Origin: a virus
Strand: one strand, 5' to 3'
Length of the DNA stretch: 64,000 nucleotides
Virus record (IMG/VR): IMGVR_UViG_3300020394_000003
Span: 32,001-96,000 of that record
This document shows, in pieces, positions 9,572 through 61,728 of the stretch. The position numbers and the translations under genes are program-made. How positions within the stretch are numbered: position 1 is the first letter of the stretch; each line of letters opens with the position of its first letter. The notes beneath the pieces are model-generated. The model saw only the letters and a list, made by a program, of their open reading frames with translations, was not told where the DNA came from and ran no database searches.

Positions 9572-9572
9572 A

Positions 9573-33677: not shown

Positions 33678-35483
33678 ATGTCAAAAGATAAAAGATTTAA
33701 CAGAAATATACGATACACAAACAGAGACTTTACATCTGTTAAAAATGATTTAGTAGAGCAGGCAAAGATTTACTACCCTGACACGTACAAGGACTTTAAT
33801 CAGGCTAGCTTTGGTTCAATGATGTTGGACTCAGTAGCATACGTTGCAGATCAGCTTAATTTTTATTTAGACTATCAGGCCAATGAAAGCTTTATTGATA
33901 CGGCTGTCGAATATGAGAATGTTGTAAGGCACGCTAAGAGTTTGGGATACAGATGGAAGGGCGCCCCTTCTAGCTTAGGCGTGATTTCCATGTATGTCAT
34001 TTGCCCCGCCGCAGGTCTCGGAATGGGAGTAGATTTAGATTATGTCCCAGTGCTAAAAGCCGGCGCCCAATTCACATCACAGTCGGGCGGCAGCTTTTTA
34101 TTAATGCAAGATGTGGATTTTTCTTTAAGTTCAAATGAAATCGTAGCTGCTAGAAAAGACTCCACAACAGGTTTACCTACACACTATGCGATCAAAGCAT
34201 ATGGTAAAGTCATTTCTGGCGAAATTATGAGAAAAACAGTTAATGTTGGCAGCTTTCAAAGATTTAGAAAAATTCAAGTAGGTTCGTTAAGTAACGTGTC
34301 GGAAATTTTACGTGTCACCGATGACGAAGGTCACGAATATCATCAAGTTGAATATCTATCACAAGACGTTATTTACAAAGAAGTTGTTAACAAAGATGCT
34401 CGCATCTCTGGGGTACCATCCGTGATGCGCCCTGTCTCTGTTCCTAGGAGATTTATTATTGAAACAGAAGGTAACGATCTCTATATTCAGTTTGGCCATG
34501 GCTCAGACTCAGAAGCAGCCTCTCCATCAGTGGTAGAACCTACAAACTTAACGCTGCAGCAGTTTGGAAGAAGCTATATTACGGATGAATCTTTTGATCC
34601 CAATAACTTATTATCAACGGATAAACTAGGAATTAGTCCGTCAAATACAAGAGTGTATGTGATTTATAGAATCAATAGTCAGACCACTGCAAATGCAGCA
34701 GTTGGAACAATAACAAAGGTTGGCAGCAACGAAATGTTATTTAGGGCCGAGCACGAACTGAGTCAAAAAAAGGTAAGGGAAGTAAGAAGATCTTTAGAGT
34801 CTTATAATGAAGAAGCAATCGTGGGGGCAATTACGCTTCCCGATACTGACGATATTAAAAGAATGGTGTACGATAACTTTGCAACTCAAAACAGGGCTGT
34901 CACAAAACAAGATTACTTATCACTAGCATATTCTATGGATCCAAAATTTGGCAAAATTAAACGATGTAACATCATGAGAGATCCTGATTCATTAAAAAGA
35001 AATTTAAATATGTATGTTTTAGCTGAAGCACCAAATGGAAAGTTATCGGTTGCAAATGACTCATTAAAAAGAAACTTAAAAACTTGGCTAAATCAATATA
35101 GGATGATCAATGATACAATTGATATTCTAGATGGAAAAATTTTAAATTTTAGAATTGATTTTGATGTTGTGGGGCACAGAGACTATAATAAGCACGATGT
35201 TTTAAATCAATGTGTAAAAGTGTTGAGAGATGAATTTGCACAACCAAAATATATGGGTGAACCATTTTATATTTCTGATATTCAGAATATGTTAAACGAT
35301 GTAGATGGTGTTACCGACGTTAAGATGGTTAAAGTTACATGCATGAATGGCGGAATTTATTCCGATTCTTTTCTTGACATAGCACAACAAAAGTCCGCAG
35401 ATGGAAGATATATCGTAATTCCAGAAAACTGCGCAGTAGAAATTAAATATCCAAGAAACGATATTGTGGGGACAATTACATAA
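33678..35483 (+). CDS. Baseplate wedge subunit (T4 gp6/baseplate J-like)
   Basis: YTNRDFTSVK..L; LDSVAYVADQLNFYLDYQANESFIDTA; IQFGHG; QNRAVTKQDY; DVDGV. Confidence 0.88.
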   Translation: MSKDKRFNRNIRYTNRDFTSVKNDLVEQAKIYYPDTYKDFNQASFGSMMLDSVAYVADQLNFYLDYQANESFIDTAVEYENVVRHAKSLGYRWKGAPSSLGVISMYVICPAAGLGMGVDLDYVPVLKAGAQFTSQSGGSFLLMQDVDFSLSSNEIVAARKDSTTGLPTHYAIKAYGKVISGEIMRKTVNVGSFQRFRKIQVGSLSNVSEILRVTDDEGHEYHQVEYLSQDVIYKEVVNKDARISGVPSVMRPVSVPRRFIIETEGNDLYIQFGHGSDSEAASPSVVEPTNLTLQQFGRSYITDESFDPNNLLSTDKLGISPSNTRVYVIYRINSQTTANAAVGTITKVGSNEMLFRAEHELSQKKVREVRRSLESYNEEAIVGAITLPDTDDIKRMVYDNFATQNRAVTKQDYLSLAYSMDPKFGKIKRCNIMRDPDSLKRNLNMYVLAEAPNGKLSVANDSLKRNLKTWLNQYRMINDTIDILDGKILNFRIDFDVVGHRDYNKHDVLNQCVKVLRDEFAQPKYMGEPFYISDIQNMLNDVDGVTDVKMVKVTCMNGGIYSDSFLDIAQQKSADGRYIVIPENCAVEIKYPRNDIVGTIT

Positions 35484-37027
35484 TGGCTGTTAAAAGATAT
35501 TGGGCATTGAAAGATAACACTATCACCAACGCCTACGAATCAAATTTACAATATCGAGCGACCGGCTCAAACATGGGCGGGTCAGATGTTCTTGAAGTAT
35601 TTAGTGTTTACCAGCAGGCAGGAACATCATCCTCAGATCAGGATGAGTTTGCAAGGATCCTAATTCAATTTCCAATTACAGGCTCAAACCTGCAAAATGA
35701 TTATACTTCAGTAAAAAGAGATCGAGTACTAGGGAATATTCCAGCTTCAGGAAGTGTAGAATTTTATCTTAAAATGTATAATGCACGCCATTCTTTAACC
35801 ACTCCCCGTGACTATAGTCTTGTAGTAGCTGCTCTTAACAAAGATTGGGATGAGGGCAGCGGTTTAGATATGGACAACTACACTGATGTTTTGTACGGCG
35901 ATATGAAGGGCTCTAACTGGATCTCATCTTCACTGGGAACAAAGTGGACATCAGCCGGCGGTGATTGGGATAACGATGATTCTCTAGGTGTAACCGCCTC
36001 TTTTTATACTGGCGTTGAAGATATGGAAGTTAATGTAACACCGCTTGTTGAAAACTGGATTGCAGGTACAAAGAACAACTATGGAGTAATTGTACGGCTA
36101 GCCCCCGATCTAGAGTCTGCAGAAAAATCATATTACACTAAGAAATTTTTTGGAAGAACATCTGAATTTTTCTTTAAAAGACCGGTATTGGAAGCTCGCT
36201 GGAATTCGGCCACTAGGGATGACAGAAATAATTTTTATTATAGCAGCTCAGTCGCTACATTATCAGACAATCTAAATACACTTTACTATTATAACTTTGT
36301 ACGCGGCCGCCTCCGAGCGATTCCACTCGATGCAGGCTCTGAAGTCGTAGTGAGTCTGTACACGGCTTCCCCAGATGGCACCCCAAGCGCCACGGATGGT
36401 AAAATCGCCCTCTCAAAGGGTGGAGGTGTCGTCGCTGCCGGTGATGTTAACGCAACCGCTAGCGTATCATCAACCGGAGTTTATACTGTATCATTATCTG
36501 CAACTGGTTCTAAAAGTTCGCATTCGACACTGTATGATGTGTGGCAAATTAGAAAAGCGACCGATCAGGGAGTAGATGGGTATACACAGATTTATACAGG
36601 AAGCATCAAGCCCAAATCGGATACTGGTGCGACGTGGAACAGAAATCGAACTTACGTTACAACTGTTCCAAATCTTAAGAAAACTTATCACAGAACAGAT
36701 ACAGACCGACTAAGACTTTACACTAGAGAAAAAGACTGGAGTCCAACTATTTATAATAAGGCAAACAATACGATTGAAAGATCAATCATCGAAAGTGGTT
36801 CATATAGAATTACAAGAAATATTGATAAACTAGTAGTACTACCATTTGGTACGGGATCTGAGATGCACACTCAAATGTCTTATGATGTTTCAGGCAATTA
36901 CTTTGACGTAGACTTTTCGATACTAGCATCGGGGTATTCTTACACAATGGACTTCAGTTTTTATGATGACTCAATAGGCGACTGGATAGTGCAGCCACAA
37001 AAGTTTAAGTTTAGAGTTGACGAATAG
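35483..37027 (+). CDS. Virion structural protein with DNRLRE-like beta-sandwich
   Basis: KDNTI, ARILIQF, WDEG.G, NVTPLVENW...NYG, RPVLEARW. Confidence 0.55.
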   Translation: MAVKRYWALKDNTITNAYESNLQYRATGSNMGGSDVLEVFSVYQQAGTSSSDQDEFARILIQFPITGSNLQNDYTSVKRDRVLGNIPASGSVEFYLKMYNARHSLTTPRDYSLVVAALNKDWDEGSGLDMDNYTDVLYGDMKGSNWISSSLGTKWTSAGGDWDNDDSLGVTASFYTGVEDMEVNVTPLVENWIAGTKNNYGVIVRLAPDLESAEKSYYTKKFFGRTSEFFFKRPVLEARWNSATRDDRNNFYYSSSVATLSDNLNTLYYYNFVRGRLRAIPLDAGSEVVVSLYTASPDGTPSATDGKIALSKGGGVVAAGDVNATASVSSTGVYTVSLSATGSKSSHSTLYDVWQIRKATDQGVDGYTQIYTGSIKPKSDTGATWNRNRTYVTTVPNLKKTYHRTDTDRLRLYTREKDWSPTIYNKANNTIERSIIESGSYRITRNIDKLVVLPFGTGSEMHTQMSYDVSGNYFDVDFSILASGYSYTMDFSFYDDSIGDWIVQPQKFKFRVDE

Positions 37028-37038
37028 CGAGATAAAAT

Positions 37039-40000
37039 ATGGCAATCAAAGATTTATTTGAGAAACCACAGCAAGTACTGAGTTCGGCAGATTCCGAAAA
37101 GACAACCAAAGGAAAGGTCGAATCAATCGACAACCTTGATGCAGTACTGCGTCAAAAAGAAGAGTTTGTTCCTTATATCGATCACTCCTCTGCATCTAAT
37201 TTCGCCATCTATGGCTCTGCTGAAAAATACTATGAAGATGCTTTCACGGCAATCTATCGACAATATCCTTATGACGGTTCCGCTCACGAAAAAAAAGAGT
37301 ACGAATTAAACATAAATTATCTAACAAGGTATATTCTAGATAACAAATATCCTAGAACAAATGGTTATATTACGCTAGGACTGAATAATACGTATTCGGG
37401 CCTATCAGGTTCATACGGCAATGTAGCCTCCAGCGAATATATTAAGGTTGTAGGGGGCCCGCACACAGCATCAAACCTTCAATATGATGTTGAGGGCATG
37501 ATTGGACGCCCTCTTTACGAAACTTTCAAATACTCAAATAAGCTTGCTTCTAATCCATATGAACTAGCTGGCTTAGCTAAGGGGCAAAACTTAGGCTCAC
37601 AGCTTTCAAACTTGAGGTTTAATGCCTCAGACGGAATGACTGTTGAATTCTGGCTTAAAAAGACTGCCTTTGATCCAACAAAGACCAAAAGAGAAGTTGT
37701 ATTTGATCTTTGGAATGGAAAAAATCATGTAGGGGCAGATCCTGATTTGTCATCTGGTAGATTTTTGATTGAGCTTTCTAGTAGTGACGGTGGCCCCTTT
37801 AGGCTTACATGTGTTTCTGGTTCTACTTCTTTGGCATCCGATCTTGCAATTTGTAGCACTAGTATAACCGGCGGCATAGTTGCCAACGGCGGCTGGAATC
37901 ATTATGCTGTGTCTCTTAAATCATATCCTTCTAGCAATGAGACATTGGTTAAGTTCTATGTCAATGGCGATTTGGATAAGCAGACAACAATTAGCGGCTA
38001 CATTAACGAAGTTACAGGCGGCTTAAACGCATACATTGGTGCCCTGCAAACAGGTACCGCTCTTGGCGGCGCCGCTGGTTACGGGCTGCTTAGTGCGTCT
38101 TTAGACGAGTTTCGATACTGGAAGGAGGCACGAACATCAGAGGATATTGGTAGAAACTGGTGGACTCAAGTAAATGGAGGATCAAATACTGAAACTGCAA
38201 ACACAAGCCTAGGTGTATATTATAAATTTAATGAAGGTATTGTACAAACCTCCGCTGCAGATACCGCTGGTTATGCTTTTGATAAAAAGATTTTGGACTA
38301 CTCTGGTCGCGTATCAAACGGAGTTTGGGTTGGGTACCCGGGCCTCCCACATCGTGCTAGAAGTACAAATTCGGCCATTGTGGAAGCGAATGTGGCAGCA
38401 ACAGAATTTAAAGACCCAATTCTATACAGTACACACACTAGAGTTAAAAATTTAAGAACCGAGCTGATGGCTAGCGGTTCGATGTGGGATGATGAAAATA
38501 ACGCATCACTGTTGAACGCACTGCCATCTTTTATGCGAGAAGAAGACGAAGAGATAGGGGACGGAACATTAACGAATACATTACAAATGATGGGTGCATA
38601 TTTCGACAAGATCCATCATTTAATTGATGCATTGCCAAAAGTTAGAGCTACATCGTATCTTACAGCATCAGCAAAGCCCTATCCTTTCGCCACTCATTTG
38701 CTGGAAAGTATTGGGTTAAACGCCCCTGAACTTTTTGTACAGGCGAATGTGCTAGAGTCGTTTGCTCAAAGAGATGAAGACCGTCCGTATACGCAAGATT
38801 TAACAGAGCTTAAAAATCTTATTTATCAAAACATTTACAATAACTTAACATACATTTACAAGTCCAAGGGTACTGAAAAGTCTATTCGAAATATTGTACG
38901 TTGTTTCGGAGTAGACGAAGAACTTATTCGACTTAATTTGTATTCTAGCAATTTAACTTATGAGTTAAAAGATAATACTAGAACTAAAACAGTAAAATCA
39001 AAATGTGTTAATTTTAATGACGTTGATAAATTTGACTCTACAATATATCAAGCGGCAGATCCTGACAATGCAAATACTTCGGCGTATATTACTGGATCCG
39101 GCCCGACAACAGTAACCGCATCTTTAGGTAAAGAAGATTTGCTTGGAATGACTGTGGAGGGAGAATTCATTTTCCCAATCAAGCTTACTAGGCGAGATTT
39201 CGGATATTTTGACACCCCATTTACAAAAGTGTCTCTATTTGGCATGCATACGCCAACAAAGAATGGTAATTCATTTGACACCAAAGACTATGCAAACTTC
39301 CAAGTTCAAGCTATAAAACCGAATGCAGAATCTAACCATGCATATTTTAAGCTTACCTCAAATTATGACCCGTACCCAATTCCAGAGCTAACATCCAGCT
39401 TGTTTAATGATGTATACGACAATCAAAGATGGAACCTATCTGTTAGAATTAAACCACTTGATCCCGTAACTAACTTTGTACAAGACAATCAGGTTGATAC
39501 AACGTTTAACCCGCTAGCAAGAATGTGCCAAAACTACGAAGTTCACTTTTATGGCGTGAACATGGAAACAGGATACCCAGAGCATACCTTCCACCTTTCG
39601 GGAACCATGGAGGCACATAAAGCTAGAGATTTTCTGAGAGCTTCAAAGAAAATCTATGCCGGTGCCCACAAACAAAACTTTAACGGCGCCACAATCGATC
39701 TCTCAGATGTTAAAGTATCGAACATTAAATACTGGGCAACTTGTTTAGATAATGAAGATTTACTAGCACATGCTAGCGATCCAGAAAATCACGGTGTTAC
39801 AGATCCATACAAGAATGTTGCTTTACAGGTTGCGAGCCTTAATAAATGGCACATTCCAAAAATTGATACTTTAGCCCTTAACTGGACATTTGAAAACTGT
39901 GTTGCACCATCTTCTGATGCAGGCGACCCATCAACTGACGACTCGTTTTTCTTCGTGGACGACATCTCATCGGGCTCGTCAGAAGCGGTTGCTTCCGCAA

Positions 40001-43000
40001 AGTATGGCTGGTTCAGCAACATTATTGATCAACAACACAGTGGAAAAGGAGACAGGTTCTTACCGCCAGAAAGTGGTGACAAAAATCCAATTGATGTAAA
40101 CTACATCTCTTCTGCCCGTCGTCAGTTACCAGAGGTTGTAAATACAAACGACGCTGTTCAGATTTTAAGACAAGATGATGATAAGTTTACTAGAGAACAC
40201 AGCATAGTACAGCACTATTATGCTATCGAAAAGAGCATGTACCAGACCATTTCTGAAGAAATGATTAATATGTTCGCATCAATTGTTGATTTTAATAACT
40301 TAATTGGTGAACCGGTAAACCGCTATCGACAAGAATATAAAGACCTAGGAAAGCTTAGGCAACTGTTCTTTGACAGAATTGGAAATACACCAAGTCTAGA
40401 TAAGTACGTTCAATTTTACAAATGGCTAGACTCAGCTGTCACCACTGTTATCCAAGAACTCATCCCAGCGTCAGCCGAAGTTGCTGCAGACCTACACAAT
40501 ATGGTCGAAAGTCATGTTCTTGAGAGAAATAAATACTGGACTAAGTTTCCTACGATTGAGTTCAAGCAAGATGATCCTGAAGCGGGCCTTCGCGGTGTCA
40601 TGGAGCTTACGTATGATTGGGAGCATGGCCATCATCCTGTAAATCAAAATCAGGCAAACAACGCTCTTTATTGGAAAGAGCGCGCAGAACGAGATGATTT
40701 CCCGCTGTCAGTGACAGCTTCCGTCGGCTCGCCATTCTTTCAATTAGATGGTAACCCAGTAGATGGTAACAAAAATACAATTCGTCGCACCCTAAACACT
40801 CACAGGGAGGCTAAGAAAAACTCTCTAGCAAGACCTGATGGTACTCTGTATGGAGGCCGTGAATACTCATTAAGAAAATTTACAAAGCCATACAAATTAG
40901 AAATGGACATGCCACTAGAAATAAAATCTGGCATCAATTTTGAAAAAAATAAAAATGTAGATATTGCGAAAAACCTTTTGCATCCAAACGCGCCGCTTAC
41001 AATAAGCTCATCGACTAACGGTCCACTAGCCGATTTACCAACAAATGTAATGTTTGTAGATGGTGACAATATTGATTCTTTTAAAGATGTTAGTGACGAT
41101 TTAGAACTGAACAAGGGCAAAAGAAAATATACTGGTACAGTTATTATGGGTCGAGAAAAAGAATTCGATCAGCACAATAATGAGACCTACGCAGAAACTA
41201 CATACGCAAAAGTACTACCAGCAACAATCGTATCCAGTTCGGTAGTAACAGGCTACAACAAGGTGTTCGCTGGTGTTGATGCTCCCGGGTTTGTTACCGG
41301 CGCTTCGATCACAAACATTCATCATGATTTTTATGGACAAGATCGAGAGATTCCGATGCAAGGTCCGTTCACAGAAAAATATGTAGGAGGACATCAATCT
41401 AGACACGTTCGCCTAAACCCCGGAACAGACGATTTCCAGAATAGGCCCGAGGCGTGGAGAATCCTAGTAGGAAAAGTCGTTCCCGGCTGCAGCCGTCAAG
41501 ATCCCGGTGCCTTTGGATTTGTGGGGCAAGATTACCCATATCCAGTTATTGGTAAAGAACCCATAGCTGCCACTGGAATAATTAATTGCCATATTGGTTC
41601 AGACTTGCCATTTTGCGATCCAGCAGATGGAGATACCATTACTATCAGTGATGGCAGGACCACATCAGTATTCGAATTTGATACTAACGGCTCCGTAGTG
41701 GCTGGAAATGTAACACTTGATATATCAGGAGTCAGTGGAGGTGCAAATAGTCGATCAAGACAGTATGCACAAATTCTTGCAAATGCTATCAATGCAGTAG
41801 CAGACTTACAAGTTCAAGCCACTGATAACGAACACACAATAACACTAGTTAACACATTATATGGTGCACCCTCTTCGAAAGCTTCGTTTTCTCTGGGAGC
41901 CAAGGGAAACGCTGCAATTGTAAAAACCCCCAAAAACAGCGGCGCAGGAATTGGCAGGTCTCACAGTGAAACAACTGTGTGGCGAGTAACTGGTATGGCC
42001 GGCGGACAAAACCCGGTTATTTTAAATCAAAAGCCGCCAAGAGCGGTCCGGTACCGAGAAGAATTGATCAAGCGACCAGTTAACTTTAAGAACATTAGGC
42101 AAACAACTGCCTCTGTCGACGTGGTTGTTGAGGCTTCAAGACAGCACGGCCCAATCGGGAACTATACACACAACTATGAAATTGTCCAATCTGCAGGTAG
42201 AACAACAAATGATCTAGATTTTAGAAAAACAAGCAGACTGGATCATCAAGATACAGCGCTAGCAAAAGGTGGTCAAGATATTGATGCTGTAACGTACAGC
42301 AGAAAACTTTTACAAAGAGAAATTACAAATGAAGACGAGCCGCAACATGCAGGCGGGAGCCTAGGAGATCCTAACTTCTGGCACAGGAATGCCCCGGGCG
42401 TAACGCACAGCACAAGAGACCTTTCGAAAAATCCTAGAAGAGGAAAAAACAAGACTGTAATTGTATCAAGATTTAGCGCACCGGGTGGCTACGAAAGCAT
42501 GTCTCGCGGATTTTTAGACCCAGCGCATGAAGAGCATTCACCATATGATGTAGTTACGTTCCGCAATAGAGCAGTTAGGGGAGAATTCCAATACATTGCT
42601 ACTAGCGGATCAGTACCAGAAAACTTTAAAGATACACTCTATCAAGACGGCTTGGATGCAACGACATTTAGAGTAGTAGATATTCACGGTGAACCGTGGG
42701 GCCTAAAGAGTCATCTTACTAGATACACTGCACCATATGGCAGAGATTCAGTGCTATCTCATGGCCCTCTTCAAGGTACCGAAGTGCTTGAAAATGAAAC
42801 TTTTTACCCGGGCTTTCATAAAGTACATCGCAATGGAGCTACTGCAAACGACTTTACTACAGATATTGATCGAGTAACACACACAACATACTACGGAGTT
42901 CCCATGAACCGCGGTATAGTGATGGCTTCCGATGTTGCAGGTTTCACTCCTTCTGCACCGGGCGGTACTAAAAACAGCTCGCGAGCCTTAAGATATGTCA

Positions 43001-46000
43001 CTCATCGCATTGGCTTTCCTATCGGCCACCCCGGTACCGGTAGAGAATTTACTATGGCCGTGTGGATTTATCCTCTTAAAAATCAATCTAACAGGACGGC
43101 AGTTTGGGCCCTTGGTGATCGCGGCCTAGGCGGTACACACATGAGAGATACCCCGAACAACAGACCGGCCTGCCATATGTCTATAGACATCGATCAAAGA
43201 ATTTACTTTAGTATCAATGACCCACTTACTCACAACCAAAAAAGAATGTGGTATACAACAGATGGAAGCAATCTCAGTGTCCAAACGAAAGTACATAATA
43301 TTGTTTTAAGTTATGACGGTAGTTCGACTAGCAATGTTCCAGTCATTTACGTTGATGGGGTAGCCAAAGCCCTCACTGAAACACCTGAAGGGGGAACAAT
43401 TGATCATAGCTATCAGATGGAACGAATCGATGAAGATCCACACCGCGCCCACGGATCAACATCCGATACCGCTAACGGCATTATTGTCGGCGGCGGACCC
43501 TCTGCAGGCGCGACTCCCTCAAACACACATCTAAGTTTTTGCGATACGATCTTTATGGAGGCTGCTCTTTGGGCAACAAACCTTAGTGCCGCGCAGGTGA
43601 CGCAAATTTATGCAAATGGTTATATGCCAGATCTTACTAGCTCAACAGGTGGTATTCCCACTATTAACGGTGGCTCAATTACATCAACAGAAGATTTGGT
43701 ATCTTGGTGGAGGTTTGGTGATCAGACCAATGACCCCGGTAACCCGTCACAGATTCGTCAATCGGGCTCCACCGCGGGCAATGGATATAGCATGCTCGGA
43801 ACGCCGGTCCTGAGAGATGTGGCGGGGCTCAACAACATTGCACCGATGTATAAGGGAAATGCAATAACAGATTCACAAAATAAAATAAATTATGCCAATA
43901 TTGTCACAGAGGAAGCTTCCTCGATTGACCTCGGTGCGCTTGACATCTCCGCCTTCCAGCCCGCAGCACAAACACCTGCATATTCCATTAGCACAACCGA
44001 GCTTCAACACACAACGAACTTCTTTACAAAATTAAAATTTGACAACTACTGGGTACAGCATCAGATCCCAAGAAATCACTCTAACTATAGTTGGATTAAG
44101 GCTTCGTTAATAACCGGATTTCAGCCTGTCGGATTTCCTACATCCAGCGATGCACTAGCATTTTTGCAACGCTCAGAAACGGGCTATAATGTACACCTTT
44201 CGGATCGACGCAGATTTGATGCCAGTCTTAACACAACCGACAACGCTGCATTCTCGGATATTCAAGGAACAAGCTTCACTGGATTAAACACTGTCATTGC
44301 AGAACCTGTAAACGTATCAACAAATACACTAGGTCATCCTGTTAAAGGAGTCTTCAGTGCTACAGATGATGACGGGACTGTTTATACATCCCTGTATGGT
44401 CCACCCCTAGCGCATGGCATGCAAAGTACACACCCAAAGAATCACCTACAATATCTAAATGGTACGTTCATCCCCCAAGTATATAAATACGTCGACAGCG
44501 ATGGAATTGTAACGGATACAGACCCCTTTATATTTAACAGCTTGATTCACAATAGACAAGGGCCATATGGTTGGCCATCGTGGAAACAAATCCGTGGAGC
44601 CGATCATCCTGTAGTCAGGGCACAAAAGAAAGAAAACATGTTTTCATTTGTGTTGCCCGATGCACTAGAGATTCATTTACAAACATCGACTGGTCACAGA
44701 GTAATTAGGCCTCGCTATGGCGATATTAATGTGTATGATAGGGTTATGCCTGTTACTTCAAAATTTAAACCTATTTCATCCACCATAAACGTTTCTACAA
44801 AAATTAGAAATAGTTTTGGAAAAGATGTATCAAAAGACATTCCTATTGATATCAGCACCACTTATGGCAACGAACTAGTTTACTTTAACAGAGAAAAGGT
44901 AAATAAAAAACTAAACTTGTCTAGAAGTAAAGTAGCGGCATACGAAGAAGTTAAAGCAATGTTTACAAAGGGTGCTTTAGAATCTTCAATATCTCCCGTT
45001 ACATCTATCAATAAATTCGTATATAAGGAAACTATCTATCCATCACACGATAACATGTATAGCGGCGACGTTCGAATTAAACAAGACTATAGTAATAACT
45101 TTTGGCGCGCCACTCACGCTGAAAGAACATCAAACAATCCAAAAACAATTCATGGTCAAGCTTTTTATGGCCGTGATCCCCAATATCTTGGAAATGATAA
45201 CCTTGGCCCCAGCCTCACTCACTTCGGCACCGGTGGTTCAGTAGGAAGACCGTCAATGTCAATATGGCCACTAGACGAAGCAACTGGCGCCATGGACAAC
45301 CTGCCAAATACTTCTTACAGAGCAAAATGGGCTAATGGAAGTTTTCATAGTGATTGGATTGGAAAGGGAGAGGGAGAACTTCTCAATAGGTGGTCATGGC
45401 CGATTAAATGGGACCAAGGATACTACACGCAAGGAACTGGTTACCCAACAAGTTCAGTCCGAGGAGATAATTCTACGAATAACCATGGCACCACAGCCAA
45501 AAATCGCCTGCTGCCTGAAGCAACAGCCTGCTATTACATGCCTCATTTTATGCATGCAACCTCTTCGATTACCTCTCCAACTGGATTACCGCTGGTTTCA
45601 TCAACGGCTTCTGCATTTCCATATACAACAAGTGAACAACTGGAAAATGTTATGTCGTTAGCCAATGCTAGCGGAATCAATCCTGCTCAAGCAGTGCAGG
45701 GCGTCCGCGTCGTAGAGGGCATTTATACTACAGAAGAATGGAACACAGATCAAGCAACTGCTGGCAATTTAACGATTCAACCTTTAAATCAAAATTCTAA
45801 TTATGCTGGATTCGTACCAATGCAAAGTGGATACACAGCGTGGCAAGCGGGTAAGCTAGCTGGAGTCATAAGAGAAGTATCTGTACCTCAAGATGGAACT
45901 GAAGAATTGGTTAATAAAGGAACGCAGTTTACCAAGTTCGTATCAGCATCAACCGACCCTTGGTACTCATCATATGATGAATTTTACAATGATATTAGAG

Positions 46001-49000: not shown

Positions 49001-49992
49001 ACTACGATAAGATAATTGCAAAAACCCCTGAACTGGATAGGTTAGATCGAATCAGCAGAAGTCGTCAAGTAAATTTGGGAACAAATAGTGAAAATAGATA
49101 CAGCTTCAACTGGCCGTATGATTGTTTCTCTATTGTAGAAATGGCACAGCTAGAAGCAACAGTTGAATTTGCAGAAGCATCACCATCCGTATCACAGGCA
49201 CTCAAATTCGACCCATCAGGGGGACGACCTAGTAGACAAGGCGCATATGGGTTCCCAATAATTCCAAATCAGACGCCACCCGGCCTGATTCAAAACTTGG
49301 GAGGATTTTCTGGTGTCTCTGGAGAAGGCGGCGGCGTGATTCAAAAACTTGGCAGATCGCCATGGACACAGGAAATCCAGAGTGGCGATGGCTATAGTAT
49401 GGGTGCCGTCGTCGCCGATAACCCCTTCGGCTCAATCCGCGAAGGTTTTGGTTATGAACCCGGTGGAACAGGAGTAACACCATATGAGCTAGAAGGATAT
49501 GGCACCGTCGATAGTTTAGGCGGCGTTCTAGGCACCGTAGAACAGGGGGCTTATAATATGCGTTCGCTAGATGTAAGGACTTACGAAACAGGTGTTGACG
49601 CATTGTCAACTGAGTTCCGAAATCTTGCTTTAGAAGGATCGTCTGGACCAATTTTCCAAGGGCCGGCCGCAGGTCAAGCACTAGCTTTCGAGTACGACTT
49701 TCAACAAGGCGCCGTGCAAATGAACTCTGGAATGTCAGGCATTAATAGTGTACAAAGTCTTGCTACGAATCCCGCAACAAATGCGCTTCAATTCCAAGCT
49801 AATTCTGGTGTCGGTGCTTCAACCAATCTCGCAAGTCAATACGGAGGACTCAGCACTGCTGGTTCGCTATCAATATTGAACAACTCTACGTTCAATGCTG
49901 CTGCAGGGGCAGCAACACAGCAAGTAACGCAAGTAAACAATAGCGCAGCACAGTATCAGCCAATTTCAACATTCTTCACGTTTACGATTTAG
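37039..49992 (+). CDS. 4317-aa giant tail/baseplate protein with LamG/concanavalin-like domains
   Basis: TVEFWLK...WNHYAV..FYVNG...LDEFRYW...YYKFNE; a further LamG-like block FTMAVWI...YVDG...LVSWWRFGD; IYKSKGT.KSIR (gp7-like) segment. Confidence 0.7.
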   Translation: MAIKDLFEKPQQVLSSADSEKTTKGKVESIDNLDAVLRQKEEFVPYIDHSSASNFAIYGSAEKYYEDAFTAIYRQYPYDGSAHEKKEYELNINYLTRYILDNKYPRTNGYITLGLNNTYSGLSGSYGNVASSEYIKVVGGPHTASNLQYDVEGMIGRPLYETFKYSNKLASNPYELAGLAKGQNLGSQLSNLRFNASDGMTVEFWLKKTAFDPTKTKREVVFDLWNGKNHVGADPDLSSGRFLIELSSSDGGPFRLTCVSGSTSLASDLAICSTSITGGIVANGGWNHYAVSLKSYPSSNETLVKFYVNGDLDKQTTISGYINEVTGGLNAYIGALQTGTALGGAAGYGLLSASLDEFRYWKEARTSEDIGRNWWTQVNGGSNTETANTSLGVYYKFNEGIVQTSAADTAGYAFDKKILDYSGRVSNGVWVGYPGLPHRARSTNSAIVEANVAATEFKDPILYSTHTRVKNLRTELMASGSMWDDENNASLLNALPSFMREEDEEIGDGTLTNTLQMMGAYFDKIHHLIDALPKVRATSYLTASAKPYPFATHLLESIGLNAPELFVQANVLESFAQRDEDRPYTQDLTELKNLIYQNIYNNLTYIYKSKGTEKSIRNIVRCFGVDEELIRLNLYSSNLTYELKDNTRTKTVKSKCVNFNDVDKFDSTIYQAADPDNANTSAYITGSGPTTVTASLGKEDLLGMTVEGEFIFPIKLTRRDFGYFDTPFTKVSLFGMHTPTKNGNSFDTKDYANFQVQAIKPNAESNHAYFKLTSNYDPYPIPELTSSLFNDVYDNQRWNLSVRIKPLDPVTNFVQDNQVDTTFNPLARMCQNYEVHFYGVNMETGYPEHTFHLSGTMEAHKARDFLRASKKIYAGAHKQNFNGATIDLSDVKVSNIKYWATCLDNEDLLAHASDPENHGVTDPYKNVALQVASLNKWHIPKIDTLALNWTFENCVAPSSDAGDPSTDDSFFFVDDISSGSSEAVASAKYGWFSNIIDQQHSGKGDRFLPPESGDKNPIDVNYISSARRQLPEVVNTNDAVQILRQDDDKFTREHSIVQHYYAIEKSMYQTISEEMINMFASIVDFNNLIGEPVNRYRQEYKDLGKLRQLFFDRIGNTPSLDKYVQFYKWLDSAVTTVIQELIPASAEVAADLHNMVESHVLERNKYWTKFPTIEFKQDDPEAGLRGVMELTYDWEHGHHPVNQNQANNALYWKERAERDDFPLSVTASVGSPFFQLDGNPVDGNKNTIRRTLNTHREAKKNSLARPDGTLYGGREYSLRKFTKPYKLEMDMPLEIKSGINFEKNKNVDIAKNLLHPNAPLTISSSTNGPLADLPTNVMFVDGDNIDSFKDVSDDLELNKGKRKYTGTVIMGREKEFDQHNNETYAETTYAKVLPATIVSSSVVTGYNKVFAGVDAPGFVTGASITNIHHDFYGQDREIPMQGPFTEKYVGGHQSRHVRLNPGTDDFQNRPEAWRILVGKVVPGCSRQDPGAFGFVGQDYPYPVIGKEPIAATGIINCHIGSDLPFCDPADGDTITISDGRTTSVFEFDTNGSVVAGNVTLDISGVSGGANSRSRQYAQILANAINAVADLQVQATDNEHTITLVNTLYGAPSSKASFSLGAKGNAAIVKTPKNSGAGIGRSHSETTVWRVTGMAGGQNPVILNQKPPRAVRYREELIKRPVNFKNIRQTTASVDVVVEASRQHGPIGNYTHNYEIVQSAGRTTNDLDFRKTSRLDHQDTALAKGGQDIDAVTYSRKLLQREITNEDEPQHAGGSLGDPNFWHRNAPGVTHSTRDLSKNPRRGKNKTVIVSRFSAPGGYESMSRGFLDPAHEEHSPYDVVTFRNRAVRGEFQYIATSGSVPENFKDTLYQDGLDATTFRVVDIHGEPWGLKSHLTRYTAPYGRDSVLSHGPLQGTEVLENETFYPGFHKVHRNGATANDFTTDIDRVTHTTYYGVPMNRGIVMASDVAGFTPSAPGGTKNSSRALRYVTHRIGFPIGHPGTGREFTMAVWIYPLKNQSNRTAVWALGDRGLGGTHMRDTPNNRPACHMSIDIDQRIYFSINDPLTHNQKRMWYTTDGSNLSVQTKVHNIVLSYDGSSTSNVPVIYVDGVAKALTETPEGGTIDHSYQMERIDEDPHRAHGSTSDTANGIIVGGGPSAGATPSNTHLSFCDTIFMEAALWATNLSAAQVTQIYANGYMPDLTSSTGGIPTINGGSITSTEDLVSWWRFGDQTNDPGNPSQIRQSGSTAGNGYSMLGTPVLRDVAGLNNIAPMYKGNAITDSQNKINYANIVTEEASSIDLGALDISAFQPAAQTPAYSISTTELQHTTNFFTKLKFDNYWVQHQIPRNHSNYSWIKASLITGFQPVGFPTSSDALAFLQRSETGYNVHLSDRRRFDASLNTTDNAAFSDIQGTSFTGLNTVIAEPVNVSTNTLGHPVKGVFSATDDDGTVYTSLYGPPLAHGMQSTHPKNHLQYLNGTFIPQVYKYVDSDGIVTDTDPFIFNSLIHNRQGPYGWPSWKQIRGADHPVVRAQKKENMFSFVLPDALEIHLQTSTGHRVIRPRYGDINVYDRVMPVTSKFKPISSTINVSTKIRNSFGKDVSKDIPIDISTTYGNELVYFNREKVNKKLNLSRSKVAAYEEVKAMFTKGALESSISPVTSINKFVYKETIYPSHDNMYSGDVRIKQDYSNNFWRATHAERTSNNPKTIHGQAFYGRDPQYLGNDNLGPSLTHFGTGGSVGRPSMSIWPLDEATGAMDNLPNTSYRAKWANGSFHSDWIGKGEGELLNRWSWPIKWDQGYYTQGTGYPTSSVRGDNSTNNHGTTAKNRLLPEATACYYMPHFMHATSSITSPTGLPLVSSTASAFPYTTSEQLENVMSLANASGINPAQAVQGVRVVEGIYTTEEWNTDQATAGNLTIQPLNQNSNYAGFVPMQSGYTAWQAGKLAGVIREVSVPQDGTEELVNKGTQFTKFVSASTDPWYSSYDEFYNDIRVKAKDYSVLPEFRMEDHIGDYINNKGGDFLAEQNSLFRMVGMPSGSNELAANSSEDNFYKIYGTSDFLKHFDILKNDIEEHFQPSSLTLKCNAVLKFNPYDGFYPAQRTLQLASQFSASYGRYVEYEGPGMHFHMANDDDAETSGGYIFRQHPIGETAGVTTNLAFRNFLSPLFSPGIMFNTIKAGIACDWPVMTEGVKIYKTRSGKSDYWGLGFSNPHQDDELHDRFDALYGVPNNTHVSATKQLNESNGVLQSGIFKIREDLRKGAISESLIVQSASIAGISDGFRIIEPEGKYNHGGDETDGGFYATKINVADLPGMQATSYTLDPIRDDNSLVFTRIKITASYGPGPNMGRWDKRIPFEAMINPENYLKNIKLFDYIAHPSCSLDVTASWQGQGDELYSMMANNFLAAVPDFFLKNNSMTTISSKAQDELNLYAEQGTSYGMRIKMYRSLNRERNYNAERARALRTKLYDVPQDPRDDHGLHETFTMYSRASAFGPPIFGRTHCVRNAGNPVLATDPNPDTLAQAIASKLTASYSALELGNIFSDLDIEILDACGTQRIPETLFHTASFHATTGGVLDSVEGYYWSHTPPYYHGEAWCDLIFKPKQSKTYSLAEIVDQLEVRQYRVDPGFEDPTGASGEMNPQFIPNGFHSSSLYSAENINANAMQIDSSVNLFGIGKVKTYAYNNVGATGRASATTVRRTTGDSPAWIIQPKFETPMLNFSSLTPAQGGTCPRPLTDDILETPLYGAEGAPRGMWHQFGTLPQGSEGVYLSVGDIPSDWLNNHPLAKNSDIYAGSDDEGSGSLAAYKRAFLGDRNQGMKSLSDLVGMDTTPQRLGTIKETMTVYEAVVAVPFVLKDNLRWFFTLDPHMVDVALGEESYRIQDGSDEPGVSIAEQLRKMQKYVFPPQFDFLNNRELTPMAMYIFEFSMKFSKDDLSYMWQNLLPPTTKKFEMASANVHHNLLINELMGYANREDAQPLKDNIQWMVFKVKQRAPVNYYDKIIAKTPELDRLDRISRSRQVNLGTNSENRYSFNWPYDCFSIVEMAQLEATVEFAEASPSVSQALKFDPSGGRPSRQGAYGFPIIPNQTPPGLIQNLGGFSGVSGEGGGVIQKLGRSPWTQEIQSGDGYSMGAVVADNPFGSIREGFGYEPGGTGVTPYELEGYGTVDSLGGVLGTVEQGAYNMRSLDVRTYETGVDALSTEFRNLALEGSSGPIFQGPAAGQALAFEYDFQQGAVQMNSGMSGINSVQSLATNPATNALQFQANSGVGASTNLASQYGGLSTAGSLSILNNSTFNAAAGAATQQVTQVNNSAAQYQPISTFFTFTI

Positions 49993-50006
49993 AATAGGGT
50001 GAGCGA

Positions 50007-50030: not shown

Positions 50031-50039
50031 ACAAACAAT

Positions 50040-57606: not shown

Positions 57607-57613
57607 GTTATGC

Positions 57614-57637
57614 ACTATTTATAATAGTAACTATTTA
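57614..57637 (+). promoter_or_regulatory. Tandem candidate late-promoter motifs ACTATTTA
   Basis: ACTATTTA at 57614-57621 and 57630-57637. The first lies in a perfect inverted repeat, ACTATT-TAT-AATAGT. Purine-rich RBS and ATG 57658 follow. Confidence 0.5.
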
Positions 57638-57657
57638 AAAAAGGAAGAGGATTACAC

Positions 57658-58569
57658 ATGGCATTTTTAGATAACTCAGGTGACATCATTCTTGATGCGG
57701 TCCTAACTGATACAGGGCGCTTCCGTTTGGCCAAAGGCGATGGAAGTTTTAAGATTACAAAATTCGCTTTAGGAGATGATGAGATTGATTATGCATTGTA
57801 TAACAAGAATCACCCATCTGGAAGCGCTTACTATGATTTAGAGTTACTACAAACGCCCGTACTCGAAGCATTCACAAATAATACGTCTATGCTTAAATCT
57901 AAACTAGTTTCGATTCCAAGAACAAATTTGCTGTACCTTCCGGTAATGAAGTTAAATGAAATCTATTCTACAAACAATGCTAGGCACACTACTGGTGCTT
58001 ATTTAGTCGCTGTTAACAAAGATACCGAAGAAGCATTGGGGGTTGACGCTAGCAGCAATGCGGTATCTGGTATTATGTACGGAGAAAATGTAGGCGCTGG
58101 TACGACAATTCGTGTAGATCAGGGTCTAGATACATCAGAGATCTCGCCCGCTTTTACAATTGACGCGGACCTAGTGGAGACTCAATATATTGTAGAGTTT
58201 GATAATAGATTTGGATCAATTGTAAACGCAACTAATGGTTCGATTACTTCACCATCTTTTATTGATGATGATAACATTGCGACATATTTTTTCTCGCTTG
58301 GAACAGATATCGGAATTGTATCTGAAAATACAGAAAGAGACGCAGCCGCGTCTACGCAAACTATTCAAGGCCCTCGCGGAACATATATAGAATTTCAAAT
58401 TCAATCATCGTTGGATTTAAACACTGGAACATTCTTGTTTACTGAGCTGGGTTCAACAACAACTGTTAACTCCACGGCCGTTTACTACATCGATACAACA
58501 GTCAGAATTACAGGTGCAACAACGGGATACAGAATTGATGTCCCGGTGAGACTAGTAAGGAAGCAATAA
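57658..58569 (+). CDS. Structural protein with tail-collar-fibre-like N-terminal motif
   Basis: LDAVLTDTGRFRLAKG..FKITKFALGDDEIDY. Confidence 0.55.
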   Translation: MAFLDNSGDIILDAVLTDTGRFRLAKGDGSFKITKFALGDDEIDYALYNKNHPSGSAYYDLELLQTPVLEAFTNNTSMLKSKLVSIPRTNLLYLPVMKLNEIYSTNNARHTTGAYLVAVNKDTEEALGVDASSNAVSGIMYGENVGAGTTIRVDQGLDTSEISPAFTIDADLVETQYIVEFDNRFGSIVNATNGSITSPSFIDDDNIATYFFSLGTDIGIVSENTERDAAASTQTIQGPRGTYIEFQIQSSLDLNTGTFLFTELGSTTTVNSTAVYYIDTTVRITGATTGYRIDVPVRLVRKQ

Positions 58570-58579
58570 GGAAACACAC

Positions 58580-59761
58580 ATGGCTACTACTTTTAAAACA
58601 TTTTCATCTAATGATGTAATTTCTACAAAAACTTTACTACACGAAGCAGTTCCCCTAACCGGGGCGATTGTTTCAGGTACATACGGAGACCTTAACGTTA
58701 AAAACTATTCGCATGGGATGTTTCAGTCAATCTACGACTATCCATATCTTAGTTCATCAGCGAACCATGTTTTTGATGTTTCGGTAGGATATAGCCCTCA
58801 TTCTCCGCTATCTGGTTCCAGCAATCGAGTAGCCCAGAATAAAAAGTTTAACATTTATAATCAAATGGCGCAAGTCTTGATGGGTTTTGACCACACTGGA
58901 TCGGTTCAGCGCTTCGATGAAGACGGCGATCTGCTCGCCGGAGGAACCAAAATTGATTCTGCAATTTTCCTTAGCTTTTCTCGGCTGCTGGTAAAAGATG
59001 AAATCAAGAAAGGTTCATTCTCTATAACTTTAGGAGTCAGCCCTTATGCTGCTCAGCGAGACACTGGTCTTCATGGTGACGGTAGGGTATTCGACAAAAG
59101 AATTACGCTAGCAGATACAAACGCTCAGAACGATTTTAGAGTAAACTCCCCCGCAGGAGAATATGGTATCTTGTATGCTAGTGTCGCGCAAGGAAGCAAC
59201 GTTCTTGTTGGCGATCCAGCTGCAGGTTCGACAACAGTAAAAGCTGGTTTGATTTACTATCAAGCGGGTATTGCAGTAATCACCTCTTCTGTGTTGATCA
59301 GAAGGGACGATCATGATAATCGCGACAGCAATCATAGCGGCCTTTTACATGCTAATCTAGGAGCTTTCTTGACTGGTTCAGTCTTTGGACATAAGGGCGT
59401 TAACTCAACTACTCCAGAAGGCTTTCACGGTCTTGTAACTGGCTCAAACATTTCTTCATCCTGCGATGCTGTGCGAGCTAGAATTCACAACATCTCCTTT
59501 AATAACACAACAGAACTAAACTCAACTGTGTATTTCTGCAGAGCCAATCACAACGAATTTAACTATAGTGCAAACCCAACGTATCTTAACGGCAGTAAGA
59601 TCAGGGTTAAGCAGCAAAGTACAGACCAGCCAGTGTCCTACATTACCACTGTCGGACTTTACTCTGCGGATAATGAACTCATGGGTGTTGCTAAACTTTC
59701 TGAGCCTCTGCGAAAAGATCCGACTAATGAAATGACATTGCGAGTACGTTTGGATTACTAG
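58580..59761 (+). CDS. Structural protein with tail-collar-fibre-like C-terminal motif
   Basis: YITTVGLY..DNELMGVAKLSEPLRK...LRVRLDY; paralog of 60460-61728. Confidence 0.6.
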   Translation: MATTFKTFSSNDVISTKTLLHEAVPLTGAIVSGTYGDLNVKNYSHGMFQSIYDYPYLSSSANHVFDVSVGYSPHSPLSGSSNRVAQNKKFNIYNQMAQVLMGFDHTGSVQRFDEDGDLLAGGTKIDSAIFLSFSRLLVKDEIKKGSFSITLGVSPYAAQRDTGLHGDGRVFDKRITLADTNAQNDFRVNSPAGEYGILYASVAQGSNVLVGDPAAGSTTVKAGLIYYQAGIAVITSSVLIRRDDHDNRDSNHSGLLHANLGAFLTGSVFGHKGVNSTTPEGFHGLVTGSNISSSCDAVRARIHNISFNNTTELNSTVYFCRANHNEFNYSANPTYLNGSKIRVKQQSTDQPVSYITTVGLYSADNELMGVAKLSEPLRKDPTNEMTLRVRLDY

Positions 59762-59762
59762 C

Positions 59763-60449
59763 ATGTCTGGCAGAGACCGGGCAACTAGACGGCTTCGCGC
59801 AAAATATAAAAAACTTATTGGTGAGTTAAGGTATTTGTATACAGATTTGGAGTATTACAAAGAAGAGCATCAATACAGAAAAGAAGATTTTCATGAAGAC
59901 TTTGCGTCTTGGTGCGAAGAGATGGGTTATGATTGTACCCGACCAGAAACGCGTCAAAAATATGAAGAAAAACAAATTGACCCATACTCTCAAAAAGTCA
60001 ACAAAAAAGAGCTACAAGAAATTCAAAAAGAAGTATATAATGATGATAGTGACGAATCAGAAGATCCTGATGACGCCTATAAAGATTTGAAATCATTATA
60101 CAAAAAAATAGCAGTAGAAACTCATCCCGACAAACTCACCCGTGCAGAAAAAGCAGCGCGAGAGAGAAAAGAGAGATTGTTTATAGAAGCAAAAAAAGCA
60201 TATGATGAGAACAATTTTTTTAGGCTGTCGCAGATAGCAGAAGAATTGGGGCTAGACCTGCCACCACCATCAAAGCAACAGCTTGTATGGATGAGAGAAG
60301 AGAAGAAGAAAATAGAAAAAATCATTGCTAGCATATCTACGACATATGAATGGGTTTGTGGAGAGGAAAATCCGCTGATGCCAAAAGATGTTATGTACCA
60401 AAAATATGCAGATGCGATTGGTTGTGTAAAATTGAAGAAAGAGGGCTAA
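59763..60449 (+). CDS. J-domain (DnaJ-like) co-chaperone
   Basis: LKSLYKKIAVETHPDK...F.EAKKAY, with an intact HPD motif. Confidence 0.82.
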   Translation: MSGRDRATRRLRAKYKKLIGELRYLYTDLEYYKEEHQYRKEDFHEDFASWCEEMGYDCTRPETRQKYEEKQIDPYSQKVNKKELQEIQKEVYNDDSDESEDPDDAYKDLKSLYKKIAVETHPDKLTRAEKAARERKERLFIEAKKAYDENNFFRLSQIAEELGLDLPPPSKQQLVWMREEKKKIEKIIASISTTYEWVCGEENPLMPKDVMYQKYADAIGCVKLKKEG

Positions 60450-60459
60450 TTAGTACAAG

Positions 60460-61728
60460 ATGTCAGTATACAAGTTCCAGCGCGGCGATATTTTTTACAA
60501 CAGGATCAAAACGTATCCAAAGTTTGGTTATTACGTCTATAACGGGACAACATACATCAACAATAAAATCGCCTCTAGTGGCTCTTTGACTGACACACCT
60601 ATTGGACTAAAATCGGGATTTGTTAGCCTGTATGAAATGAATGTTGATAGAGTCGAAGATAAAGACTCAGGAAGAGTAATATTTGGTGGCACACCCTATG
60701 ATATTAAAGATAGGGGAGTGGTATATCCGTTTATTACAAAAGACGGCACACTGTCATCCTTTAAAACGGTTTCAGCTGGTAGTTTTGCTACATTTGGCTA
60801 TGGAACAGTCATGTCTTCTAGCTATCCTATGACAGCAAGTTTAAGAAGAGAATACTACCAGCTTGGCGAAGCACGCCCTCGCATCACAGCTTTAAGAAAC
60901 ACAATGGATTTTTACACACCGCTTAGCGATCATTACGCTTATAATTCTACTCTCGGTGATAAAAGCAGCCAAAATATGTGTTTGATTTCGATTCCGTCAA
61001 TTATGTATGGCTCGTCGATTAAAAAAGGTTCAGTTTCGTTAAAATATTACTTATCCGGTTCTCTTTTGGCAGAATTGCAAGATACAAATAGAAACGGCGA
61101 ACTAGTACAAGTGACAGGTTCGACATACGCTCAATCACAAGGGAAAGACAAAGTAGCGGGCGTTATCCTCTACAATGAAGGCTTTATCATGCTGACAGGT
61201 AGTTGGCACTTAGAACAAGAAACAGCAGTTTATGGAGGCGGTAAAACAGGTCGTGATTACCTGACTAACGGAGTTCCCGAGCCAAGTCAGTGGCGCCACT
61301 GGGGTCACACGATGGAGGGCGATAGCCAGAATCTAAAAACTGGTGACGACGCCTCTACCGAATATATTAGTTTCGGCTTAGACTATCAAGGCACCAACTA
61401 CGTGCCAGTAATGACCATGCTAGCTCATGCACCAAAGGGTGAACTTAACTATTCTAACAATCCAACTTTTGTAAAGCATGGCCAAGAGAAGAAAATGACA
61501 CCTCTAACTGGCTCTAAATTTTACAGGGAGCACGATTCGATCAGTGCTAAAAACACAATGACATCCAGTTATGCTGACCCGACTGGAAGCTACCAAAAAC
61601 AAACGTTTATATCAAAAATTGGACTTTACGACAAGGACAATAATCTTATTGCGATTGCAACTCTAGCAAATCCGGTGAAAAAATTGGAAGACTTAGATTA
61701 TACTTTTAAATTGAAATTAGATTTCTAG
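60460..61728 (+). CDS. Structural protein, paralog of 58580-59761
   Basis: IKKGS, G.I.YNEG, NYSNNPTF, FISKIGLYD..NNLIAIATLANPVKK...KLKLDF. Confidence 0.6.
   Translation: MSVYKFQRGDIFYNRIKTYPKFGYYVYNGTTYINNKIASSGSLTDTPIGLKSGFVSLYEMNVDRVEDKDSGRVIFGGTPYDIKDRGVVYPFITKDGTLSSFKTVSAGSFATFGYGTVMSSSYPMTASLRREYYQLGEARPRITALRNTMDFYTPLSDHYAYNSTLGDKSSQNMCLISIPSIMYGSSIKKGSVSLKYYLSGSLLAELQDTNRNGELVQVTGSTYAQSQGKDKVAGVILYNEGFIMLTGSWHLEQETAVYGGGKTGRDYLTNGVPEPSQWRHWGHTMEGDSQNLKTGDDASTEYISFGLDYQGTNYVPVMTMLAHAPKGELNYSNNPTFVKHGQEKKMTPLTGSKFYREHDSISAKNTMTSSYADPTGSYQKQTFISKIGLYDKDNNLIAIATLANPVKKLEDLDYTFKLKLDF

Follow-up and report, generated by a model that had tools for sequence, protein, structure and literature searches.

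Introduction

Glycosyltransferases (GTs) acting on surface proteins of bacteria and viruses have been described from several systems, and these form the background against which we discuss a short serine-containing tripeptide, [ST][GAS]S, in the virion proteins of a marine T4-like phage. The DNA analysed, called the window throughout, comprises 64,000 nucleotides and corresponds to bases 32001–96000 of the 161.7-kb IMG/VR virus record IMGVR_UViG_3300020394_000003, which has an estimated completeness of 89%. It contains a myovirus baseplate/fibre module with four motif-rich proteins and a sugar island of approximately 17 kb that includes three GT4-family genes (GT4-1, GT4-2 and GT4-3). The motif is a selected signal at the protein level. 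Several virion proteins that are not homologous to one another carry it, and it was encountered solely in the phage clade with orthologs of the window's GT4 genes. As the leading, albeit tentative, interpretation, SGS, TGS and TAS on outward-facing parts of the virion may constitute an O-glycosylation sequon.

Flagellin is O-glycosylated with nonulosonic acids by Maf/DUF115 transferases, at sites reported to favour upstream hydrophobic residues. Similarly, genes for NeuB, a cytidine monophosphate (CMP)-sugar synthetase and a weakly DUF115/MptE-like protein adjoin in the window; in contrast to the flagellin systems, however, the DUF115-like match remains below the Pfam cut-off and NeuB is absent from four of the five relatives that keep the motif. 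GtfA and GtfB are adjacent paralogs of the GT4 family that constitute a cytoplasmic O-linked N-acetylglucosamine (O-GlcNAc) transferase acting on serines flanked by small residues (S-A-S, S-V-S); their substrates are long, disordered Ser-rich repeats, and GtfB is the non-catalytic partner. Adjacent GT4 paralogs and serines beside small residues are present here as well, but an assignment to the GtfA/GtfB type was rejected, since all three paralogs keep the E-x7-E signature and the candidate sites are isolated tripeptides in folded beta domains, with no Ser-rich repeat arrays. In the chlorovirus PBCV-1, soluble virus-encoded GTs glycosylate the capsid in the cytoplasm at non-canonical sites; one PBCV-1 protein, B736L (PDB 3oy2), we take to be a putative GT4 enzyme. 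The machinery proposed here would be self-contained in the same way, and B736L is among the nearest solved relatives of GT4-1. On the other hand, the PBCV-1 glycans are N-linked on the jelly-roll capsid protein of a eukaryotic virus, and GT4-1 is no more similar to B736L than to bacterial GT4 enzymes of the BshA type.

For the autotransporter heptosyltransferases, Charbonneau et al. (2012) reportedly defined the acceptor by a short structural motif of the strand-loop-strand type and not by a strict sequon. These enzymes (Aah for AIDA-I, TibC for TibA) carry out multi-site serine O-glycosylation of beta-rich surface adhesins in the cytoplasm (PMC4358343, PMC3835316). Multiple candidate serines in beta-rich surface adhesins are likewise found in the window, whereas the substrates of Aah and TibC are built from a regular 19-residue beta-helix repeat and the candidate writers in the window are GT4 enzymes instead of heptosyltransferases. 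Mycobacteriophage GTs O-glycosylate the virion; according to the description in PMC12619734 of the work of Freeman et al. (2023, Cell Host Microbe), the glycans were shown chemically and are located at the C-termini of capsid and tail-tube subunits. Both cases concern a tailed phage with GTs of its own, whose targets in the host cytoplasm are, or in the present case would be, the phage's capsid and tail proteins. The two differ in that the candidate site here is an internal tripeptide, which is located at many positions of outer baseplate, fibre, sheath and a capsid insertion, and in that its bearers are T4-superfamily myoviruses of Bacteroidota, Rhodothermus and cyanobacteria.

Enrichment of the motif in virion proteins

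Nearly all genes of the window are located on the + strand. The baseplate/fibre module follows the sugar island and includes a gp25-like gene at 33245 and a gp6-like wedge gene at 33678; all four motif-rich proteins are encoded downstream of the latter. These proteins, with sizes in amino acids (aa), and the internal controls are as follows:

35483–37027, + strand: 514-aa baseplate-distal protein, directly after the gp6-like gene; 14 sites, more than 4000 homologs
37039–49992, + strand: 4317-aa giant fibre/adhesin-like protein; 33 sites, all before residue 3800
58580–59761, + strand: 393-aa virion protein; 7 sites, C-terminal half common to open reading frame (ORF) 60460
60460–61728, + strand: 422-aa virion protein; 9 sites, most of them positionally conserved, more than 3500 homologs
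25620–35483, + strand: internal negative controls, i.e., a 2523-aa protein, the gp25-like protein and the gp6-like wedge protein (gp25 and gp6 families); counts at or below expectation

Counts of [ST][GAS]S per protein were compared with 2000 composition-preserving shuffles. For the 514-aa protein (ORF 35483), 14 sites stand against 2.76 expected (z 6.8); the corresponding values are 33 and 13.3 for the giant protein (ORF 37039; z 5.5), 7 and 2.1 for ORF 58580 (z 3.4), and 9 and 1.8 for ORF 60460 (z 5.6). The controls gave 2 vs 3.45 (2523-aa protein), 0 vs 0.13 (gp25-like) and 0 vs 1.25 (gp6-like). The motif had been noticed by eye in a first-pass annotation of this DNA, whose hand counts of about 13, 30, 7 and 9 sites proved nearly exact; the near-absence that it reported for the 2523-aa and gp6-like proteins was borne out, and the enrichment persisted in the comparison with shuffled controls that it had recommended. 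When the four proteins are pooled, 63 sites are found vs 20.2 after shuffling of whole proteins (z 10.3) and vs 21.5 after shuffling confined to blocks of 30 residues (z 9.0); local patches rich in S, T and G were rejected as the cause of the excess, as it remains under block shuffling. Furthermore, 60 of the 63 sites are distinct 9-mers, with serine codons of both the TCN and the AGY type, which rules out an origin from DNA repeats or mutation, in agreement with the varied codons noted earlier, and argues for selection at the level of the protein.

The excess extends beyond the window, where further enriched proteins are encoded 13–35 kb downstream: a 284-aa protein (7 sites vs 1.5 expected), a 1379-aa protein (17 vs 9.2), a 606-aa protein (10 vs 2.8), the 984-aa tail sheath protein (12 vs 4.7) and, more weakly, the 611-aa gp23-like capsid protein (5 vs 2.0). 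The structural block as a whole contains 152 sites vs 74.4 expected, with the inner baseplate proteins remaining at expectation. All 12 sheath sites are located within residues 144–631 and none in the conserved sheath domains (691–975), and all five sites of the capsid protein fall into an insertion (residues 178–334) that the capsid protein of Rhodothermus phage RM378 does not possess. The motif is thus confined to outward-facing parts of the virion, in line with the earlier view of its carriers as probably surface-exposed; conserved cores and inner baseplate are not enriched. The 606-aa and 1379-aa fibre-like proteins (L027:3614-5434, genome position 117614, and L026:14467-18606, genome position 110467, respectively) have near-identical N-termini, MSYNLLSGSVEF and MGYNVLSGSITL, which already hold the motif; by its sequence, this shared N-terminus may be a docking segment.

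In total, enrichment was found in at least 10 virion proteins that show no detectable homology to one another and are predicted to adopt different folds. A single shared domain family was considered as the cause and rejected, because an all-against-all BLAST comparison of 12 enriched proteins revealed only two small C-terminal similarities. The statement that the carriers are unrelated proteins applies to the 514-aa and 422-aa families, which show no profile similarity and differ in their predicted folds, but not to the 393-aa and 422-aa proteins, which have a C-terminal domain of approximately 170 aa in common (23% identity, E 8e-8). The same domain is located at the end of a 416-aa protein of RM378 and of a 482-aa protein of the uncultured phage LR756508, and its sequence conservation suggests that it may serve as an attachment or trimerisation module.

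The structural model of the 514-aa protein (predicted local distance difference test, pLDDT, 80) consists of an N-terminal jelly roll resembling a carbohydrate-binding module (CBM), followed by Ig/FN3-like sandwiches; its best match is the CBM 8wab with a template modelling (TM) score of 0.70. The model of the 422-aa protein (pLDDT 75) matches no solved fold. Of 22 motif sites in these two models, 10 are located in loops, nine at strand ends or in a two-residue hairpin turn, and three inside strands. Within the giant protein, residues 187–370 form a ConA-like lectin domain (Laminin_G_3, E 7.7e-18). Its last approximately 525 residues contain no motif site.

Residue grammar and positional conservation

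An unbiased scan of all tripeptides placed TAS, TGS and SGS at the top of the frequent words. Across the whole structural block, SGS is found 38 times vs 13.2 expected, TGS 34 times vs 11.8 and TAS 29 times vs 11.5, and these are the only strongly enriched members of the class; SAS, TSS and SSS are not enriched in the block, so that the class [S/T]-[G/A/S]-S as initially formulated was slightly too broad, while its core stands. The first residue has to be S or T, no enrichment being found for x-G-S with other residues such as N, D, G, A or V at this position. The third position is equally restricted: within the four proteins, [ST][GA]S occurs 45 times vs 12.8 expected, but [ST][GA]T only 10 times vs 11.1, and permuted versions of the motif are close to expectation. 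At the flanks, positions -3 and -1 and the residue that follows the motif are preferentially hydrophobic, and position -1 is poor in charged residues; this agrees with the hydrophobic residue that had been described as often preceding the sites. Within the same four proteins (window 35483–61728), only 4 occurrences of [ST][DNEQ]S stand against 17.5 expected (z -3.4), a strong depletion that is the counterpart of the preference for a small residue in the middle.

The 514-aa and 422-aa families each comprise thousands of metagenomic relatives, many of them from marine surveys. In an alignment of 73 homologs of the 514-aa protein (49–81% identity), every sequence contains 10–20 sites, and 18 columns show the motif in at least 30% of the sequences, compared to one or two for control motifs. 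Examples, numbered according to the query, are TGS at Q27 (64/73), SGS at Q89 (60/73), SSS at Q254-256 (73/73, invariant), S[GA]S at Q438 (67/73) and TGS at Q457 (70/73). For the 422-aa family, 10 columns reach an occupancy of at least 30%, compared to one for a control motif. Homologs at 36–50% identity retain the excess. Among homologs, S and T are interchangeable at position 1, as are G, S and A at position 2, while position 3 is almost always S, a constancy that is in part a product of the criteria by which sites were selected. At Gly-type sites, N, T or A take the place of the third residue; the substitution pattern of Ala-type sites is different.

GT4 genes and motif among related phages

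The candidate writers and the accessory genes next to them are encoded as follows:

4134–5411, + strand: GT4-1, 425-aa retaining-type GT, candidate writer (Glycos_transf_1, E 1e-12; E-x7-E intact)
5412–6731, + strand: GT4-2, 439-aa paralog (E-x7-E intact; matched by RM378 ORF 10616)
6728–7987, + strand: GT4-3, 419-aa third paralog (E-x7-E intact)
7968–11536, + strand: variable accessory sugar genes, i.e., DUF115/MptE-like, NeuB (263 bits), an unknown 429-aa protein and a CMP-sugar cytidylyltransferase

In each of the three paralogs, the E-x7-E signature is preserved in the form EGFGL...E. The nearest solved structures to GT4-1 are those of BshA-type enzymes and of PBCV-1 B736L (E 3e-8). Among 50,697 phage records, full-length orthologs of GT4-1 (approximately 30% identity) are restricted to the cultured Flavobacterium phage immuto, the Microcystis phage Mel-JY01 and LR756508, with RM378 matching over 75% of the length; RM378 carries the GT4-1/GT4-2 pair. 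Of 16 further IMG/VR records, 12 possess GT4-1 at 60–68% identity and the other four end before the expected GT4 position, so that no clade member without GT4 was found among the 12 records covering that position. Judged from its occurrence in these genomes, GT4-1 is a core gene of the clade. It is 60–68% identical in relatives whose 514-aa protein is just 44–51% identical, and the sequence comparison suggests strong purifying selection on GT4-1.

Every tested phage with a GT4-1 ortholog shows the motif excess. Two IMG/VR relatives (G001 and G003) have the same pattern, and in immuto and Mel-JY01 the excess is located downstream of the gp6-like gene; the densest carrier is the 1053-aa "tail spike" of immuto (L049:35296-38457), with 60 sites vs 20 expected (z 9.5). 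RM378 possesses motif-rich proteins of 483, 423 and 100 aa with the same hydrophobic context, and none of these has a BLAST match to anything in the present phage. LR756508 shows a weaker excess. Conversely, no excess was found in the virion proteins of T4 (26 vs 26.3), in Pseudoalteromonas phage XG4 (88 vs 88) or in the 114 kb examined of LR756511 (48 vs 38), the latter two being the nearest relatives without a GT4-1 homolog. Tetrasphaera phage TJE1, with a GT at 21.6% identity, was rejected as an independent replicate; it shows no enrichment and is uninformative either way. The co-occurrence of motif and GT4 in relatives, recommended as a check at the outset, is therefore perfect insofar as GT4-bearing and GT4-lacking phages separate completely, but it corresponds to a single change on the capsid-protein tree, which unites the seven GT4-bearing phages in one clade (support 88/90) and places LR756511 as its sister.

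The sugar island further encodes a methyltransferase, a HAD hydrolase, a nucleotidyltransferase, weakly GT2-like proteins, a sulfotransferase and a PhyH dioxygenase. NeuB is present in one of five relatives, and within the island the GT4 genes alone are conserved together with the motif. The proposal that the entire GT island is the writer is accordingly narrowed to its GT4 genes; the accessory sugar genes (7968–11536) may elaborate a glycan. The NeuB protein (window 8741–9571, + strand) has 276 aa, covers model positions 1–274 of 329 and scores below the equivalog cut-off. By sequence, the SAF-like domain at the C-terminus of bacterial NeuB/PseI seems to be missing from it. An assignment of ORF 7968 to Maf/DUF115 was rejected (PF01973, 23.4 bits vs a cut-off of 34.6; no NCBIfam or PDB sequence match).

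As to other possible substrates of the GT4 enzymes, neither a ThyA-family hydroxymethylase nor a TGT-family gene/DpdA was found in the 89%-complete record, and liquid chromatography–mass spectrometry of digested immuto DNA revealed only dA, dC, dT and fdPreQ1 (PMC10516641). Because of these two observations, DNA glycosylation by the GT4 enzymes is unlikely. The record likewise contains neither an initiating phosphoglycosyltransferase nor a Wzx flippase (PF02397, PF00953, PF01943); use of the host lipid-carrier machinery by the GT4 enzymes is possible. For the strongly conserved GT4 pair, no other obvious substrate emerges.

Several structural genes are preceded, at a distance of 30–45 nt, by a candidate late promoter, CTAT(A/T)TA(C/T), which in every case is on the + strand (window 33206, 50008 and 57615), with further copies before structural genes at genome positions 117.6, 101.6 and 129.4 kb. 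By sequence, it is unlike the late promoter of T4, TATAAATA. The T4-type element was rejected for this phage, as its frequency is at chance level.

Glycosylation sequon or structural motif

According to the mechanism we propose, the acceptor signal of outward-facing virion domains would be [ST]-G-S or T-A-S, typically in the context hydrophobic-x-hydrophobic-[ST]-[GA]-S-hydrophobic and positioned at the end of a beta strand or in a tight turn. The writers would be the clade-conserved soluble GT4 enzymes (window 4134–7987), with virion proteins as their cytoplasmic substrates, either folded or still folding. The likely acceptor would be the serine at position 3, and further elaboration of the glycan, distinct for each lineage, would be due to the variable downstream genes (NeuB, CMP-transferase, methyl- and sulfotransferases). 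A trans-acting writer is favoured because the trait is clade-specific, spans unrelated folds, follows a strict grammar and is confined to outer parts, with a conserved enzyme pair at hand. Moreover, a hydroxyl group is needed at positions 1 and 3, with free exchange of S for T at the first position and of G, S and A for one another at the second, a pattern which a generic Gly turn does not explain; such a turn was rejected, since G-S is not enriched after other first residues. The motif statistics, the conservation of the sites, their restriction to outer parts, the clade distribution and the intact GT4 signatures are observed directly; the attachment of a sugar, the residue that would carry it and the enzyme responsible are inferred. 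Self-contained O-glycosylation of virions, with the GT4 pair as the writer, could be a property of a whole clade of abundant aquatic T4-superfamily ("Far-T4"-like) phages, a proposal made with considerable reserve. Equally provisional is the extent of the coat, which might comprise sheath, capsid insertions, outer baseplate and fibres in phages whose hosts are Bacteroidota, Rhodothermus and cyanobacteria. Thus, of the original idea of a modification sequon with a phage GT as its writer, the selected, clade-limited signal on outer parts stands firm, while the attachment of a sugar to the motif does not follow from it, the link to GT4 being one event on the tree.

Several observations weigh against a sequon. 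GT4 and the motif share a single origin, given that the GT4-bearing phages are one clade, and their link is confounded with descent. The acceptor specificity of GT4 enzymes is not readable from sequence, and no published report of glycosylated virions, or of this motif, was found for immuto, Mel-JY01 or RM378. Most of the excess is located at positionally conserved columns with hydrophobic flanks, some of them invariant; upon masking of the conserved columns, the residual excess is just 1.3–1.7 fold, so that the signal consists mostly of kept positions, with no rapid turnover. Within the 97 non-structural proteins, the motif is neither enriched nor depleted (39 vs 37.5), although its avoidance there would not be strictly required of a sequon if recognition also needs a structural context. 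Finally, CTAT(A/T)TA(C/T) was looked for in the sugar island (4–21 kb) and is absent, so that co-expression of the island with the structural genes gains no support.

A structural or assembly role of an unmodified motif is nearly as probable as a sequon. [ST]-G-S and T-A-S would end a strand or make a tight turn, with the Ser/Thr side chain conceivably capping the backbone and the small residue placed where the chain reverses or packs; in this reading, the motif would have become fixed in the accessory beta-rich surface domains of this clade and would travel with GT4 through common descent only. The 18 motif columns of the 514-aa family, including the invariant SSS at 254–256, and the 10 columns of the 422-aa family fit such a role, as do the beta-strand periodicity of the hydrophobic residues at -3, -1 and +3, the nine of 22 modelled sites at a strand/loop junction or two-residue hairpin turn together with the three in strands, the mapping of GT4 and motif to the same single branch, and the lack of avoidance in non-virion proteins. 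In the same vein, position 3 of Gly-type sites is replaced by N, T and A; after Gly, these residues are the set preferred in type II' turns. A physical preference should be general, yet the virion proteins of T4, XG4, LR756511 and TJE1 show none. Nor would it account for the requirement for S or T as the first residue, with N, D, G, A and V before G-S not being enriched, or for the need for Ser at position 3, given that strands are formed more readily by Thr. Besides, the motif spans unrelated folds and families, and the differing substitution patterns of Ala-type and Gly-type sites imply that one structural role does not cover all sites.

A functional surface, i.e., a binding face for polysaccharide or water, or recognition by another trans-acting partner (a chaperone or an enzyme for phosphorylation or acylation), appears unlikely. 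Hydroxyls at i and i+2 with a small inward residue between them would, as deduced from the flanks, be placed on one face of a strand, and the carriers are lectin- or CBM-like adhesins; however, about half of the modelled sites are in loops, off the sheet faces. A handful of proteins besides the two GT4s, such as that of ORF 22069-22770, have BLAST matches in RM378 but not in XG4, while no kinase or acyltransferase of the right distribution was seen. An artefact of composition or chance, due to local S/T/G-rich patches or the post-hoc choice of the motif, can be regarded as excluded. The enriched proteins do have an above-average content of Ser, Thr and Gly, and the choice of the motif was made by eye, but the excess withstands both kinds of shuffling (pooled z 9–10) and is kept in homologs at 36–50% identity, and the unbiased scan retrieves the same words, with permuted and Thr-ending controls being flat.

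Should the motif indeed direct glycosylation, tailed phages would gain their first defined short O-glycosylation sequon, virions with a sugar coat would be the norm among aquatic phages of a very abundant group, and a function would be assigned to GT genes that are usually written off as modifying DNA or lipopolysaccharide. With sheath, capsid and fibres coated in this way, consequences would follow for adsorption, grazing and decay, for how readily virions stick to marine polymers and for their recognition by the defences of the host. With three members of the clade in culture (immuto, Mel-JY01 and RM378), the question is directly testable. If it is purely structural, the motif would still mark outward-facing virion domains by a sharp clade-specific signature, which could aid the annotation of unknown phage proteins.

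Other genes of the window

In addition to the sugar island and the baseplate/fibre module, the window contains a PhoH gene. Between the island and the module, a 233-aa protein of no known family is encoded at 22069–22770 (+ strand). It has BLAST homologs in RM378 and LR756508 and none in XG4 or in the tested part of LR756511, a distribution identical to that of GT4 and the motif. On the basis of these sequence matches, it could be another clade-specific factor.

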